Positions 27,147 to 30,716 of a DNA stretch of 64,000 bases are shown piece by piece (position 1 is the first letter of the stretch; each line of letters opens with the position of its first letter). Source of the stretch: Bacteroidia bacterium (lineage in GTDB: Bacteria; Bacteroidota; Bacteroidia; NS11-12g; UBA9320); contig CBDCFW010000006.1 of NCBI GenBank assembly GCA_965216465.1, forward strand, positions 416,723 to 480,722. The letters run 5' to 3'. Position numbers and translations under genes: made by a program. The notes under the pieces are model-generated. The model saw only the letters and a program-made list of their open reading frames with translations. It had not been told where the DNA came from and ran no database searches.

Positions 27147-28877
27147 TTATCCAAGCTCAATTCCCTCCGACCATTCCAATCCACTCGCAAGTTTTGCAGA
27201 AGAAAACTCCAAATGAAGCACCCTCCTTTTTTTGGGGTTGCTAGACTTCGAACTTTTGTGAAGCAATAAAGGCTTCATGAGCATGATCCCTCCGGCTTCT
27301 ATTTCTATCGGGATAGGATCAGTATTCTCGGTGATAAGCTTCCGTTCTGCATCACTGTGTATCTTTTTGTGTGAACCAGGAATTACCTGCAAGCCGCCAC
27401 CATTCTTTGGACTAACATCATCCAAATAAATACGCAAGGTGAATGTATTTTGATTAATCTCAATCGGTGGATTCACACTTACGATTCCTTCCTTGCTTGT
27501 CCAACCGGTGTATCCCTTCACCAACTTCTTCTTCACGACATTTATAGCTCGATCTTGATGCCAGGTAACATACCAATTAGCCTTTTCGGTCTTGTTAAAA
27601 AAAATTGATTTACACAGCTGAGCATCCTTATCGATTGATTTAATAACCTTAAGAACTCCTTTGGTAATCACCAGATCCAGTAAGTTCGGATGTTTATTCA
27701 ATAAAGCCCTTTCAGAAAATTTATCAGGATTCGCTTGAAGTTGTAAGGCTTTATCCAGAGCCCTGCTTAACCTTTTTATTTCACGCAAGCTGAGAACATG
27801 GTTTAGGATGGCATATCCCTTATGTTCTAACTGTTTGCCTGCTGCCTTAATATTCTTATCGGTTAACTCGGTAGTATAGTTGCTTACACTTTGTTTTAGT
27901 CTATCCTCAATTCTTCGTTGCAAATCAGCAGGTTGCAAAACCTTCACCGATTCACCATACGAAAGAATCTCTTTCTCCAGCTCAAAATTGTGCTGCACCT
28001 TCAGTGCTATAACTACACCAAAATTATCTCTTTTGATTACGGTTTGCGAATGGTGCAGCGGCTTGGTAATAATGTAAGGTGCATGAGCATGATCAATAAA
28101 TATTTCTACATCCATAAGTGGAGCATTGGGAGAAACCGATACCCCAATCGCATTTCTAAAATAGGCTGCAGTATCAAAACTGTCATCCATTCTATAAGCA
28201 GATTTTCCAGCAGAAAGATTAACGATACGATCCAAGGCCAGGTTCAATATCCCTTCGGCCTTATGCTTACAACCAATCACAAACCATCTATTTCTAAACT
28301 CTTTGAGTAAGTACGGATGAAAATCAAATGAATTGGCCTTTCGAGCCTTAAATGATTTATAAGTGAGGTTGATTGTTCGTTTCTTGATAATGGCATTGTA
28401 GATCGTGTCGAGGTATTCCAATCCCTTTAAGTTCTCATTCTTCTCGAAATCAATCACCGGTTTAGTAGCTGTTTTCTGCGAATAAATGTGATCTTCCAAC
28501 TTCTGAACCATGCCATCCAATTCTCTAAAGTGAGAGAATCCCTGAAACTGCTTCATAAACTCAACTGCTTCGGTGAGCTTCCCTAAATCTTGTTCAGTAA
28601 GTGGAATATTGGTAATCGAATAATCTGCATCTTCATAGGTGTAGTACTTCTTATCCAATACAATTATCGGAGCAAAGTAACCCAGCTTATCGCTTCGCAT
28701 AATTTGGATATCGGCTTGTACCGTCCGTTTACTTACCCCTTTGTCGATCCCCTCGTATTCATATAGTGCATCTGAGCATGCTTCAATCAAGTCTTCCAAC
28801 GTCCATTTTCTGTATCTGTTCTGCAGACATTGATCAATGGTTTTGTAGCGTATGAGTGCATTCTTATTTACCGACAT
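27147..28877 (-). CDS. wHTH-WYL domain regulator fused to PhyH/EctD-like Fe(II)/2-oxoglutarate dioxygenase domain
   Basis: N-terminus NALIRYKTIDQCLQNRYRKWTLEDL (wHTH) and a WYL-like block FHPYLLKEFRNRWFVIG. C-terminus has WHQD...PGSHK...R, which is the PhyH-type HxD...H...R iron/2OG triad. Confidence 0.65.
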   Translation of the reverse strand: MSVNKNALIRYKTIDQCLQNRYRKWTLEDLIEACSDALYEYEGIDKGVSKRTVQADIQIMRSDKLGYFAPIIVLDKKYYTYEDADYSITNIPLTEQDLGKLTEAVEFMKQFQGFSHFRELDGMVQKLEDHIYSQKTATKPVIDFEKNENLKGLEYLDTIYNAIIKKRTINLTYKSFKARKANSFDFHPYLLKEFRNRWFVIGCKHKAEGILNLALDRIVNLSAGKSAYRMDDSFDTAAYFRNAIGVSVSPNAPLMDVEIFIDHAHAPYIITKPLHHSQTVIKRDNFGVVIALKVQHNFELEKEILSYGESVKVLQPADLQRRIEDRLKQSVSNYTTELTDKNIKAAGKQLEHKGYAILNHVLSLREIKRLSRALDKALQLQANPDKFSERALLNKHPNLLDLVITKGVLKVIKSIDKDAQLCKSIFFNKTEKANWYVTWHQDRAINVVKKKLVKGYTGWTSKEGIVSVNPPIEINQNTFTLRIYLDDVSPKNGGGLQVIPGSHKKIHSDAERKLITENTDPIPIEIEAGGIMLMKPLLLHKSSKSSNPKKRRVLHLEFSSAKLASGLEWSEGIELG

Positions 28878-28933
28878 AAATTTTTATTGCTGATTATCAG
28901 CGTTTTACAATAATTTTTTCAAAGATAAAACTT

Positions 28934-28954
28934 CTACGCAAAAACACTGCGTAG
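28934..28954. promoter_or_regulatory. palindromic operator CTACGCA-N7-TGCGTAG (copy 1), in the divergent region between the WYL gene and the tRNA array
   Basis: Direct reading. The same 7-7-7 palindrome plus downstream AATCTTTGTA...ACAAAACG recurs at 32621-32641. Confidence 0.7.
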
Positions 28955-29019
28955 TTCGATTAAAATCTTTGTATAACAAAACGGAGGAAACTCTAAAATT
29001 ACGTTCATTTATATAAACT

Positions 29020-29043
29020 CCCTCGAGCAATCGGGCTCGAGGG
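29020..29043. other. GC-rich hairpin CCCTCGAGC-AATCGG-GCTCGAGGG, 19 nt upstream of the first tRNA
   Basis: Perfect 9-bp stem read directly. Confidence 0.5.
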
Positions 29044-29061
29044 ATTGATAAACAATACTTT

Positions 29062-29142
29062 GCCCTTATGGCGGAATGGCATACGCAGCAGTCTTAGAAA
29101 CTGTGGCCGCAAGGCATGTAGGTTCAACTCCTACTAGGGGCA
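29062..29142 (+). tRNA. tRNA-Leu (anticodon TAG), class II
   Basis: Hand-folded cloverleaf: acceptor GCCCTTA/TAGGGGC, anticodon loop CTTAGAA, long variable arm, T-loop GGTTCAACTCC. Confidence 0.75.
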
Positions 29143-29143
29143 C

Positions 29144-29217
29144 TTTGGGATGGTCTAACGGAAGGACGGGTGGTTTTGAGCCACTAAGTGGAGGTTCGAC
29201 CCCTTCTCCCAAAACCA
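29144..29217 (+). tRNA. tRNA-Gln (TTG), U1:A72, encoded CCA
   Basis: Acceptor TTTGGGA/TCCCAAA, loop TTTTGAG, T-arm GGAGGTTCGACCCCTTC, 3' ACCA. Confidence 0.7.
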
Positions 29218-29226
29218 AGTATATAT

Positions 29227-29302
29227 CTAGATGTAGGGGAGTCAGGCTTTTCCCGCTCGCTTTGGACGCGAGAGCACGTTGGTTCGAATCCAGCCATCTA
29301 GA
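29227..29302 (+). tRNA. tRNA-Pro (TGG), enlarged D-loop
   Basis: Acceptor CTAGATG/CATCTAG, anticodon stem CTCGC/GCGAG, loop TTTGGAC, T-arm GTTGGTTCGAATCCAGC. Confidence 0.65.
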
Positions 29303-29304
29303 CT

Positions 29305-29376
29305 GTGACTGTAGTATAACGGCAAATACACCAGGTTGTGACCTTGGTTATGAGAGTTCGATTCTCTCCAGTCACC
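29305..29376 (+). tRNA. tRNA-His (GTG)
   Basis: Acceptor GTGACTG/CAGTCAC with C discriminator, loop TTGTGAC, T-arm GAGAGTTCGATTCTCTC. Confidence 0.7.
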
Positions 29377-29381
29377 AAAAT

Positions 29382-29453
29382 GCTCCTATAGCATAATGGT
29401 TAGTGCAGCAGGTTTTCAACCTGAAGATTAGGGTTCAATTCCCTGTAGGAGTA
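29382..29453 (+). tRNA. tRNA-Glu (TTC)
   Basis: Acceptor GCTCCTA/TAGGAGT, loop TTTTCAA, T-arm TAGGGTTCAATTCCCTG. Confidence 0.7.
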
Positions 29454-29458
29454 CAAAT

Positions 29459-29530
29459 ACAGATGTGGCCGAACGGATAGGCACTCCGCTTCTAACGGAG
29501 CACATAAGGGTTCGAATCCTTTCATCTGTA
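29459..29530 (+). tRNA. tRNA-Arg (TCT)
   Basis: Acceptor ACAGATG/CATCTGT, anticodon stem CTCCG/CGGAG, loop CTTCTAA. Confidence 0.7.
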
Positions 29531-29533
29531 CAT

Positions 29534-29601
29534 GGGCAAGCAAGCAGGATAGAATGAGTCTTCGAAACTCTAGTCGGTAGGTTCGAATCCTACCTTGCTC
29601 A
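29534..29601 (+). tRNA. short (68-nt) atypical tRNA, anticodon loop CTTCGAA (TCG, Arg-like), reduced D-arm
   Basis: Acceptor GGGCAAG/CTTGCTC, T-arm GTAGGTTCGAATCCTAC. Only a 4-bp anticodon stem, and a ~12-nt D region. Confidence 0.45.
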
Positions 29602-29606
29602 CAAAT

Positions 29607-29680
29607 GGGGTAGATACACAAGTGGCTCGCACCTTGCACTTGCAATGCGAGGGTTGTCGGTTCAAGACCGACCTACTCCA
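29607..29680 (+). tRNA. tRNA-Ala (TGC) with G3:U70 identity pair
   Basis: Acceptor GGGGTAG/CTACTCC (G3:T70), loop CTTGCAA, T-arm GTCGGTTCAAGACCGAC. Confidence 0.75.
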
Positions 29681-29686
29681 CAAAAT

Positions 29687-29758
29687 TGAGATGTAGCTCA
29701 GAGGCAGAGCAGTCGGCTGTTAACCGTCAGGACGAGATTTCGAAACTCTCCATCTCAG
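29687..29758 (+). tRNA. tRNA-Asn (GTT), U1:A72
   Basis: Acceptor TGAGATG/CATCTCA, D-arm TAGCTCAGAGGCAGAGC, loop CTGTTAA. Mismatches in the anticodon stem and T-stem. Confidence 0.6.
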
Positions 29759-29764
29759 CAAATC

Positions 29765-29841
29765 GGTTTAGTGTGCTCTACTGGTGTAGGGATTTAGCTT
29801 GTCACGCTTCAAAAACGAGGGTTCGAAACCCTCCTAGACCG
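29765..29841 (+). tRNA. aberrant tRNA-like gene, anticodon loop TTGTCAC (GTC, Asp-like), poor anticodon stem
   Basis: Acceptor GGTTTAG/CTAGACC and T-arm GAGGGTTCGAAACCCTC are clean. The D region contains an extra hairpin CTCTAC-TGGT-GTAGGG, and the anticodon stem has only 3 bp. Confidence 0.4.
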
Positions 29842-29848
29842 CAAATAT

Positions 29849-29922
29849 TCCTCTATAGCTCAGATGGTGGTAGCACTCGGCTTTTAACCGAGGGGTCCTA
29901 GGTTCAAGTCCTAGTGGGGGAA
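29849..29922 (+). tRNA. tRNA-Lys (TTT), U1:A72
   Basis: Acceptor TCCTCTA/TGGGGGA, anticodon stem CTCGG/CCGAG, loop CTTTTAA, T-arm CTAGGTTCAAGTCCTAG. Confidence 0.7.
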
Positions 29923-29930
29923 CATTTTAT

Positions 29931-30007
29931 TGAGTAGTAACCGCCCAGTCTGATATGCTGGAGTTAGGTAATGGTTGTAAATGTTGGTTCGAATCCGACC
30001 TACTCAA
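29931..30007 (+). tRNA. aberrant tRNA-like gene (perfect acceptor and T-arm, no canonical D/anticodon arms); isotype undetermined
   Basis: Acceptor TGAGTAG/CTACTCA, T-arm GTTGGTTCGAATCCGAC. The interior holds a CCAG-N9-CTGG hairpin and no 5-bp/7-nt anticodon arm. Confidence 0.35.
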
Positions 30008-30016
30008 CTTAAATAT

Positions 30017-30093
30017 TGTGGAGTGATTACGATTGGTAAGTAGGCGGTCTCATAAGCCGAGGTATGTGGATTCGATTTCCACCTCCGCAACCA
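30017..30093 (+). tRNA. tRNA-Met (CAT), encoded CCA
   Basis: Acceptor TGTGGAG/CTCCGCA, loop CTCATAA, T-arm GTGGATTCGATTTCCAC, 3' ACCA. Confidence 0.6.
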
Positions 30094-30094
30094 T

Positions 30095-30165
30095 GCGAGT
30101 GAAGCATTTCGGTAATGCACCTGCCTTCCAAGTAGGAGAGCTAGGTTCGACTCCTAGTACTCGCA
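30095..30165 (+). tRNA. tRNA-Gly (TCC)
   Basis: Acceptor GCGAGTG/TACTCGC, anticodon stem CCTGC/GTAGG, loop CTTCCAA, T-arm CTAGGTTCGACTCCTAG. Confidence 0.7.
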
Positions 30166-30170
30166 CTTAT

Positions 30171-30244
30171 TGGCCTTTAGCTTATGCGGTAGAAGCCCCT
30201 CACTCATAATGAGGAGATAGATGGTTCGAATCCATCAAGGCCAA
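30171..30244 (+). tRNA. tRNA with CAT anticodon (Met or Ile2/lysidine), U1:A72
   Basis: Acceptor TGGCCTT/AAGGCCA, D-arm GCTT...AAGC, anticodon stem CCTCA/TGAGG, loop CTCATAA. Confidence 0.7.
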
Positions 30245-30249
30245 CATTT

Positions 30250-30324
30250 AGTTCACTAGCCCAAATGGAAGAGGCAACGGGTTTAAGCCCCGTACAGGTC
30301 TGAGTTCGAATCTCAGGTGAACTA
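30250..30324 (+). tRNA. class-I-shaped tRNA with anticodon TAA (reads UUA, Leu) - atypical short variable arm
   Basis: Acceptor AGTTCAC/GTGAACT, anticodon stem ACGGG/CCCGT, loop TTTAAGC, a 5-6 nt variable region, T-arm CTGAGTTCGAATCTCAG. Confidence 0.55.
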
Positions 30325-30329
30325 CAAAC

Positions 30330-30399
30330 ATACTTCTGGCGATGGCAGCCGTTTGGTCTCCAAAACCAAAAGAACAAGGTTCGATTCCTTGGGAGTATG
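30330..30399 (+). tRNA. tRNA-Trp (CCA), short D-arm
   Basis: Acceptor ATACTTC/GGAGTAT, anticodon stem TTGGT/ACCAA, loop CTCCAAA, T-arm CAAGGTTCGATTCCTTG. Confidence 0.65.
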
Positions 30400-30404
30400 C
30401 ATAA

Positions 30405-30478
30405 GATAGGATGGCTGAGTGGTTTAAAGCGGCAGACTGCAAATCTGTTATTCAGGAGTTCGAATCTCCTTCCTATCT
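30405..30478 (+). tRNA. tRNA-Cys (GCA) with U73 discriminator
   Basis: Acceptor GATAGGA/TCCTATC plus T, anticodon stem GCAGA/TCTGT, loop CTGCAAA, T-arm AGGAGTTCGAATCTCCT. Confidence 0.7.
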
Positions 30479-30483
30479 CACTT

Positions 30484-30556
30484 GCGACTTAAGCTAACCT
30501 GGTGGAAGCATTGGTCTGAAAAACCAAAGGGCGAGGATCGTAACCTCGAAGTCGCA
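30484..30556 (+). tRNA. tRNA-Phe (GAA), unusual T-loop ATCGTAA
   Basis: Acceptor GCGACTT/AAGTCGC, anticodon stem TTGGT/ACCAA, loop CTGAAAA, T-arm CGAGGATCGTAACCTCG. Confidence 0.65.
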
Positions 30557-30562
30557 CAATAT

Positions 30563-30634
30563 GGGTTATGGTAGTGGCATCCAGCCGAGACTGTAAATCT
30601 CTAGCCTTGTAGGGTTCGAATCCCTGCTAACCCA
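30563..30634 (+). tRNA. tRNA with GTA anticodon (Tyr) but short variable arm and irregular D-arm - atypical for bacteria
   Basis: Acceptor GGGTTAT/CTAACCC (one mismatch), anticodon stem GAGA/TCTC, loop CTGTAAA, a 7-nt variable region, T-arm TAGGGTTCGAATCCCTG. Confidence 0.5.
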
Positions 30635-30639
30635 CACAA

Positions 30640-30711
30640 GCTATCTAAGCATTAATGGTGATGCACTGGCCTTGTAAACCAGATAAATAGGTTCGATTCC
30701 TATAGGTAGCT
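30640..30711 (+). tRNA. tRNA-Thr (TGT)
   Basis: Acceptor GCTATCT/AGGTAGC, D-arm GCAT...ATGC, loop CTTGTAA, T-arm ATAGGTTCGATTCCTAT. Confidence 0.6.
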
Positions 30712-30716
30712 CATTT

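Follow-up and report, generated by a model that had tools for sequence, protein, structure and literature searches.

A conserved palindrome ahead of a tRNA array and rtcB in Bacteroidota is a probable operator for a WYL-domain regulator

A 64,000-nucleotide (nt) stretch of the genome of a Bacteroidia bacterium (contig CBDCFW010000006.1, positions 416,723 to 480,722; hereafter the window) carries two copies of a 21-base-pair (bp) palindrome, i.e., CTACGCA-N7-TGCGTAG, one ahead of an array of tRNA genes and the other ahead of rtcB, which encodes an RNA ligase. Beside the first copy lies a divergent gene for a regulator with winged helix-turn-helix (wHTH), WYL and WCX domains. From sequence analysis we propose, at a probability of about 90%, that the palindrome is the operator of this neighboring regulator. 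We also propose, with moderate confidence and partly by analogy, that the operator mediates activation of the kind described for DriD, a WYL activator of Caulobacter crescentus, rather than repression.

The palindrome and its conservation across Bacteroidota

The two copies differ in their spacers, which read AAAACAC in copy 1 (CTACGCAAAAACACTGCGTAG) and GAAATAC in copy 2 (CTACGCAGAAATACTGCGTAG). They were the only exact matches to the 7-N7-7 pattern in the window, separated by 3,687 bp, and a search of the window tolerating two mismatches still found no third site. Shuffled versions of the window averaged 0.05 matches, and two matches did not occur in any of 100 shuffles. With a position-weight matrix derived from 82 sites in other genomes, both copies scored 30–31 bits, and the rest of the window gave at most 12 bits. 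Copy 1 sits between the regulator gene, on the minus strand, and the tRNA array, on the plus strand, and is common to the predicted back-to-back promoters of the two; copy 2 is followed, 40 nt further downstream, by the start codon of rtcB. The A-rich strand of the spacer points toward the tRNA array in copy 1 and toward rtcB in copy 2. A first-pass annotation, made from the letters of this DNA alone, had described a perfect 7-bp inverted repeat around a 7-nt A-rich spacer, with a second copy 3.7 kb away before rtcB, and both the coordinates and the pattern search agree with that description.

To examine relatives of the regulator, 80 genomic loci encoding them, 39 with and 41 without the dioxygenase domain described below, were scanned with CTRCGCA-N7-TGCGYAG, allowing at most one mismatch. 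The motif was present in 61 of the 80 loci. All 82 sites fell within the 619 kb upstream of the regulator genes, on the divergent side, and there were no sites in the regulator gene bodies or in the 657 kb of downstream flank; in locally shuffled sequence the mean was 0.35 sites. The site nearest the regulator gene was usually 36–39 bp from its start codon (approximately 36–60 bp in most loci), and second sites before RtcB were frequent. The targets behind the sites were genes for RtcB, RlaP, Band-7 proteins, Ro60 (with TROVE and Ro60-vWA domains) and an RNA ligase of the T4 Rnl1 type, together with single tRNAs and tRNA arrays. The genes for RtcB, RlaP, Band-7, Ro60, the T4-type RNA ligase and the tRNAs make up one functional set.

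A search that was independent of the regulator, using the exact pattern plus a downstream TTTG against public metagenomes, yielded at least 120 loci. Among the matches listed, 71 of 124 sites were within a few kb of genes for WYL regulators, RtcB, Ro60, RlaP, Band-7, Rnl1 or partner proteins. The other listed sites were mostly on short contigs or had spacers that were not A-rich, resembling chance matches. Three matches on viral contigs, none of them beside repair genes, were also taken as chance. A generic or dispersed repeat was rejected, since the 64-kb window held two copies only and none lay away from the gene cluster, either there or in the relatives' loci. The first-pass annotation had raised the prospect of a motif scattered over many unrelated sites, and neither the window scan, nor the relatives' loci, nor the metagenomes gave such a picture.

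Promoter register and the WYL regulator

We aligned 83 sites, each oriented by its spacer. Twelve positions were invariant, including T2, C4-G5-C6-A7 and T15-G16-C17-G18, and the spacer consensus was AAaAgAc, with the A-rich strand always reading toward the target gene. The promoter-distal half-site was better conserved than the proximal one. Downstream of the palindrome, a TTTG was found at a fixed distance in 76 sites, i.e., 12 nt in 72 and 13 nt in four. The four were the two window copies and the two of locus L001 (positions 403 and 9928), and no other site had this spacing; L001 is the closest relative of the window, and the 13-nt spacing is a coordinated 1-bp shift of this lineage. The bases ahead of TTTG read tAnC, in which the TA is partly conserved, giving the Bacteroidota sigma-A −7 box TAnnTTTG, which extends from −12 to −5 (PMC9723704). 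Because of this extent and the TTTG spacing, the palindrome would cover positions −41 to −21, approximately (−42 to −22 in the window), with its center near −31. The predicted start position was a purine in 78 of the 83 sites. No −33 TTTG element was found at the aligned sites, where the palindrome occupies that place. Immediately upstream, the palindrome is bordered by a conserved AT-rich tract, both at regulator-adjacent sites and at internal sites without a divergent gene. We take the absent −33 TTTG, the partial TA of the −7 box and the AT-rich upstream tract to be features of activator-dependent promoters.

In the window, each palindrome is followed by nine unconserved nucleotides, then by AATCTTTGTA and then by TAACAAAACG, with a 6-nt insertion, GTACAT, between the two in copy 2. 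The first-pass annotation had listed this extension together with the palindrome. It is present after both copies, but AATCTTTG is a putative sigma-A −7 promoter box, not a part of the operator, and ACAAAACG the putative start of the transcript. The latter was conserved in the window and L001 alone, the region being merely A-rich elsewhere. A scan with the sigma-70 consensus gave 8 matches where 8.8 were expected; it was uninformative, because Bacteroidota promoters obey another consensus.

On the other side of copy 1 there is a candidate −7 box for the WYL gene itself, the counterpart of which is weakly conserved in relatives. The orientation and spacing of the sites follow the tRNA-array and rtcB promoters, not the WYL gene. 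The earlier suggestion that copy 1 is placed to control the tRNA array is supported by this, whereas autoregulation of the WYL gene, proposed with it, is possible but not indicated; in Caulobacter, driD is not autoregulated from the corresponding divergent arrangement.

Homologues that share the WYL-WCX-PhyH architecture of the regulator number more than 7,000, and every named one is from Bacteroidota; NCBIfam gave no name for the regulator. When the single sequence was searched against the PDB, the oxygenase domain alone matched. When a profile of the regulator family was compared with solved WYL structures, DriD and PafBC alone were detected (E approximately 2e-4). Similarly, in a Foldseek search with an AlphaFold (AF2) model of the regulator (mean predicted local distance difference test score, pLDDT, of 76), DriD took ranks 1–11 and PafBC ranks 12–16; in the alignments with DriD, the C-terminal domain gave a TM-score of 0.77–0.78 (normalized to target length) at a root-mean-square deviation of about 3 Å. 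The BrxR and CapW structures were not among the relatives detected by the profile search or by Foldseek.

The dioxygenase domain (residues 340–576) retains an invariant HxD...H...R motif (H440, D442, H540 and R551). In the loci from Chitinophaga and Flavihumibacter (L060–L064), the domain is missing from the regulator, and a separate gene near RlaP encodes a homologous dioxygenase (35% identity), which suggests that the enzyme is part of the RNA-repair set.

DriD recognizes the box ATACGAC-N7-GTCGTAT, in which a CG core is conserved and the gap is AT-rich (PMC10853764). The distance of this box to the −10 element is fixed, and a non-consensus −35 element is overlapped by it; DriD binds the box asymmetrically, makes contact with the α C-terminal domain and the β subunit of RNA polymerase, and switches on the divergent operon but not driD itself (PMC13004042). 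In the published sequence of the didA promoter, an engineered optimal −35 hexamer takes box positions 7–12, so that the didA box would extend from −41 to −21 and its −10 hexamer would fall at box positions 30–35. The −7 box in our sites begins at box position 30, and the register thus equals that of didA within about 1 bp. DriD is a homodimeric wHTH-WYL-WCX regulator, as is predicted here, and the two systems are also alike in having a 7-N7-7 box with CG at half-site positions 4–5 and an AT-rich gap, a fixed distance to the −10/−7 element, a box lying over the missing −35/−33 element, and a regulator gene divergent from the target operon. Binding by DriD is asymmetric, and here the A-rich spacer always faces the target, so that both are directional; DriD is also the best structural match to the regulator. 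They differ in the half-site (CTRCGCA here, ATACGAC for DriD), in the promoters, which here are of the Bacteroidota sigma-A type with a −7 TAnnTTTG, in the targets, which are RNA-repair genes and tRNAs rather than DNA-damage genes, and in the extra dioxygenase domain on the regulator here. The first-pass annotation had also read the palindrome as a site for a dimeric regulator, common to the tRNA array and rtcB and tied to the WYL gene. Its phylum-wide conservation, its confinement to the gene cluster and its DriD-like 7-N7-7 architecture and promoter register strongly support that view.

In the mechanism that we propose, the wHTH-WYL-WCX(-PhyH) regulator would bind the palindrome as a homodimer, and the operator would replace the −33 element at two sigma-A promoters, the first serving the tRNA array, the tRNA-like RNAs and Band-7, and the second serving rtcB and rlaP. 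A nucleic-acid ligand would fill the WYL domain, the dimer would then bind the box, and RNA polymerase would be recruited to a weak promoter lacking a −33 element. Repair (by RtcB and RlaP) and replacement (by spare tRNAs) would in this way be switched on together. RNA damage is the probable source of the ligand, which might be, e.g., tRNA fragments; single-stranded DNA, which has been shown to serve DriD, PafBC and CapW as ligand, would also be possible. WYL factors governing RNA repair have been proposed to sense RNA with cyclic-phosphate ends (PMC9503650), and such a ligand would fit the regulon described here.

Activation, repression and other readings of the palindrome

The same operator might instead serve for repression, which we consider possible but rather unlikely. 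The unliganded WYL dimer, positioned over −33 of both back-to-back promoters, would then block polymerase, and the ligand would derepress rtcB and the regulator's own gene along with the tRNA array. There are precedents, i.e., CapW and BrxR, which are of the same regulator family and repress from palindromes of about 20 bp in bidirectional promoters, CapW being released by single-stranded DNA. In Anabaena, too, a tRNA array, rtcB and a slipin gene make up a regulon that is under repression, and here the core regions of the two divergent promoters are both overlapped by the operator. However, the spacing to the −7 box that is fixed throughout the phylum, the directional spacer and the absent −33 element are hallmarks of class-II-type activation that steric repression would not need. 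The box architecture and register also match DriD, and not BrxR, which has arms of 10–11 bp and a 5-bp gap (11-N5-11) downstream of the −10 element, where it acts as a steric block, as against 7-bp arms, a 7-bp gap and a center near −31 here. Neither BrxR nor CapW was found by the structural comparisons described above, and the targets of both are phage-defense systems, those here being RtcB, RlaP, Band-7, Ro60, RNA ligase and tRNAs. The second-best structural match, PafBC of actinobacteria, is a WYL/WCX activator that, like the regulator proposed here, works at promoters without a normal −35 element (RecA-NDp promoters), but it is a fused pseudo-heterodimer. PafBC recognizes a different, non-palindromic motif and controls a DNA-damage regulon.

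Several points nevertheless weigh against DriD-like activation through this operator. CapW, BrxR and the Anabaena regulator TrcR are all repressors, and an operator in the −33 region could equally block the binding of sigma. The relationship of the regulator to DriD is remote (14–17% identity, profile E approximately 2e-4), and the helices corresponding to the linker by which DriD contacts RNA polymerase are of low confidence in the AF2 model. The didA register used for the comparison rests on one published promoter and an assumed 17-bp spacer, and is good to about 1 bp. Finally, 19 of the 80 relatives' loci had no site at up to one mismatch.

The same 19 loci without a recognizable site, and the many metagenome sites for which there was no WYL gene on a short contig, would also be expected if another dimeric transcription factor, encoded elsewhere, bound the palindrome and the proximity of the WYL gene were coincidental. 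This we regard as very unlikely, in view of the position of the site, which throughout the phylum is mostly about 36–60 bp ahead of the start codon of the WYL gene, the downstream flanks that are free of sites, and an architecture that fits the structurally characterized box of a WYL regulator. It is even less probable that the palindrome acts as a hairpin, whether as a terminator or an RNA-processing signal, or is a dispersed repeat. A terminator scan did flag the palindrome, on the minus strand, as an 8-pair stem with a T-containing tail, but no minus-strand gene is placed for termination there, and the palindrome lies upstream of the predicted transcription start. The 12 invariant positions in 83 sites came with no compensatory changes, and the variable stem pair was non-Watson–Crick in 33 of 84 cases (26 A/C and 7 G/T). 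The hairpin or terminator reading was rejected because there was no covariation and no gene positioned for termination; a dispersed repeat is contradicted by the number and the confinement of the copies, as described above.

The regulated units and known RNA-repair circuits

The features of the window are collected in Table 1. Unit 1 is predicted to run from the start ahead of the tRNA array to the terminator-like hairpin, and to comprise the leader hairpin, the tRNAs, the tRNA-like elements and the Band-7 gene. Unit 2 is predicted to begin at the start ahead of rtcB and to comprise rtcB and rlaP, the latter probably being co-transcribed with the former. RlaP adds nucleotides to damaged tRNA ends ahead of ligation (PMC12776372).

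Table 1. Coordinates of the palindrome copies and of genes, RNAs and predicted promoter elements in the window
Feature	Position	Strand	Basis
Regulator gene, 576 residues, wHTH-WYL-WCX fused to a PhyH-type 2-oxoglutarate/Fe(II) dioxygenase	27147-28877	-	Pfam WYL, WCX, PhyH
Predicted WYL-gene transcription start	~28915	-	inferred
Candidate WYL-gene −7 box, perfect TATCTTTG, 6 nt from palindrome	28920-28927	-	read from sequence, inferred
Operator copy 1 (probable)	28934-28954	.	read from sequence
AATCTTTGTA, copy 1	28964-28973	+	read from sequence
Predicted −7 box of the tRNA-array promoter, AATCTTTG (TTTG core of TAnnTTTG)	28964-28971	+	inferred, fixed TTTG spacing
Predicted transcription start of the tRNA array, first A of ACAAAACG	~28976	+	inferred
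GC-rich 10-bp hairpin, predicted leader before first tRNA	29019-29044	+	−23.9 kcal/mol, z-score −5.5
tRNA array, ~21 packed genes, ~1 per amino acid, first target of copy 1	29062-30800	+	ARAGORN, Rfam
tRNA-like elements, sub-threshold YrlA (Y RNA-like), in the slot of the relatives' Band-7-associated tRNA	30884-31168	+	Rfam E-value scan
Band-7/SPFH gene, probably last in the copy-1 unit	31446-32546	+	Pfam Band_7
Terminator-like hairpin and T-run after the Band-7 gene, separating the two units	32562-32589	+	by sequence; not in terminator-scan list
Operator copy 2 (probable)	32621-32641	.	read from sequence
AATCTTTGTA, copy 2	32651-32660	+	read from sequence
Predicted −7 box of the rtcB promoter, AATCTTTG	32651-32658	+	inferred
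Predicted transcription start of rtcB	~32663	+	inferred
rtcB, RNA 3'-phosphate ligase	32682-33842	+	Pfam RtcB, E 3.6e-112
rlaP, RNA-ligase-associated Pol-beta nucleotidyltransferase	33896-34657	+	Pfam RlaP, E 6.2e-71

ARAGORN called 17 tRNAs in the array with default settings and 21 with a relaxed threshold, and Rfam added weak matches, all within about 2 kb; a tRNA array unit (L-array) is defined by 20 or more tRNA genes spaced at no fewer than 2 per kb. The array tRNAs have mostly U34 anticodons, are separated by 4–6 nt and have no encoded CCA. The Tyr(GTA) gene is 73 nt and the Leu(TAA) gene 76 nt long; the Tyr(GTA) genes of relatives are longer, at 83–86 nt. Degenerate members include those at 29534–29601 and 29931–30007 (31–34 bits with Rfam), and the array calls contain no Val gene and no separate Ile gene. 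Regarding the leader, a GC-rich hairpin of 9–10 bp with a differing sequence occurs at the same post-start position in L009, L013, L022, L033, L043 and L047; the one in L022, which is followed by a T-run, could be an attenuator.

Between the array and the Band-7 gene there were two matches to YrlA, of 35 bits at 30937–31001 and 26.7 bits at 31045–31159, both below the gathering score of 69, and an Rfam tRNA match at 31098–31168. No Ro60 gene was present in the window. The order of operator, tRNA(s) and Band-7 was conserved in the relatives, in which the slot between operator and Band-7 held no detected tRNA, a single tRNA (often tRNA-Tyr, anticodon GTA) or an array with 3 to 14 or more members. 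On metagenome contigs, tRNA arrays were found beside operator sites in L082, L083, L121, L136, L157, L175 and L188. These metagenome arrays often hold the block Gln(TTG)-Ile(TAT)-Pro(TGG), in which the Ile(TAT) anticodon is unusual for bacteria, and some are encoded by the other strand or lie beyond the regulator gene. In L016 (1400–3100), a locus labeled as a Glaciecola metagenome-assembled genome, three tRNAs come after the operator, and next to them a Fic/DOC-family protein is encoded in place of Band-7.

Other elements recur in the relatives' gene clusters. A pair of proteins of about 720–740 residues was found directly after operator sites or beside RtcB in L028 (2585), L059 (8623), L081, L091, L097, L156, L175, L188, L193 and others. 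They are of the MXAN_6230/SCO0854 RING-domain family (NCBIfam NF041916), one of them with a weak TerD match, and may be an unrecognized member of the regulon. The Flavo-1 RNA (RF01705) was detected above its gathering threshold in the gap between Band-7 and the rtcB operator in L009 (5565–5641) and L015 (6221–6296), in both cases on the strand opposite to the genes. In the window, a protein of 137 residues consisting of a DnaJ domain only is encoded downstream of the repair genes (35519–35932), and a gene for a zeta-toxin/AAA_33-like kinase lies on the minus strand at 37284–37931; neither has an operator nearby.

By analogy, the regulon described here is a functional Bacteroidota counterpart of two characterized circuits, RtcR/sigma-54 and TrcR, with a mechanism that would resemble that of DriD. 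In Salmonella and E. coli, RtcR and sigma-54 switch on rsr-yrlBA-rtcBA upon damage to tRNA (PMC7790460). The likeness is that of a dedicated sensor-regulator for RtcB together with Ro60 and tRNA-like Y RNAs, the relatives' regulon here including Ro60. The difference is that RtcR is a CARF-domain enhancer-binding protein for sigma-54 that acts at upstream activating sites, whereas here a WYL factor would act at a sigma-A promoter. No sigma-54 element (of the GG-N10-GC, TGGCAC-N5-TTGC type) was seen by eye in 32547–32681, and no search for an RtcR homologue was made elsewhere in the window.

The closest functional precedent for the regulon of the window is that of TrcR in Anabaena PCC 7120. TrcR is a ribbon-helix-helix repressor of a 26-gene tRNA array, rtcB and a slipin (Band-7) gene; its regulon is induced by translational stress, and the operator is made up of direct repeats that cover the −10 box and the start of transcription (PMC8421152, PMC10272220). 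One regulator and one operator are thus common to a tRNA array, rtcB and a Band-7-type gene, as is proposed here. The two differ in that TrcR is of the ribbon-helix-helix type, uses direct repeats and has target genes dispersed in the genome, whereas a WYL protein and an inverted repeat centered at about −31 would be used here.

The gene content of the cluster also has a forerunner in work on gene neighborhoods. Burroughs and Aravind, in 2016, were probably the first to link WYL factors and a tRNA associated with Band-7 (b7a-tRNA) to RtcB clusters. Their prediction of the b7a-tRNA in RtcB neighborhoods is cited in bioRxiv 10.1101/312249. The work reportedly concerned gene neighborhoods, and the gene content is the same as here, i.e., RtcB, RlaP, Band-7 and an adjacent tRNA-like gene. 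The slot between operator and Band-7 in our loci corresponds, on this account, to their Band-7-associated tRNA. The broader notion of WYL factors as regulators of RNA repair has already been stated (PMC9503650). In the papers that we searched, we found no description of the operator, of the promoter register, of WYL control of tRNA arrays, or of the expansion of the tRNA slot into arrays.

The motif CTRCGCA-N7-TGCGYAG-N12-TTTG provides a sequence handle with which members of the regulon can be located throughout the phylum, examples being Ro60, the Rnl1-type ligase and the RING-domain protein pair. With it, the control of RNA-repair operons outside Proteobacteria becomes testable, the characterized cases so far being RtcR/sigma-54 and the cyanobacterial TrcR. 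The role of bacterial tRNA arrays and of the Band-7-associated tRNA, both of which stand behind the operator of an RNA ligase here, becomes testable too, as does the question of whether WYL domains report RNA damage, the ligands so far shown for WYL transcription factors all being single-stranded DNA. If the DriD-like register does reflect activation, the unusual sigma-A promoters of Bacteroidota would be added to those at which WYL proteins recruit polymerase in this way.

A wider and more speculative picture, which we put forward tentatively, is that of a Bacteroidota "tRNA damage response". A WYL regulator with an apparently active dioxygenase would sense RNA, perhaps cleaved tRNA with cyclic-phosphate ends, instead of single-stranded DNA, and would induce the ligation and end-healing of RNA (RtcB, RlaP, Ro60, Band-7) and a near-complete set of spare tRNAs from a DriD-type box in the place of the −33 element, the set having been expanded repeatedly from the slot of a single Band-7-associated tRNA. 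If this were true, the WYL domain would be a sensor of RNA damage, and tRNA arrays would gain a defined, inducible role in surviving toxins that cleave tRNA.

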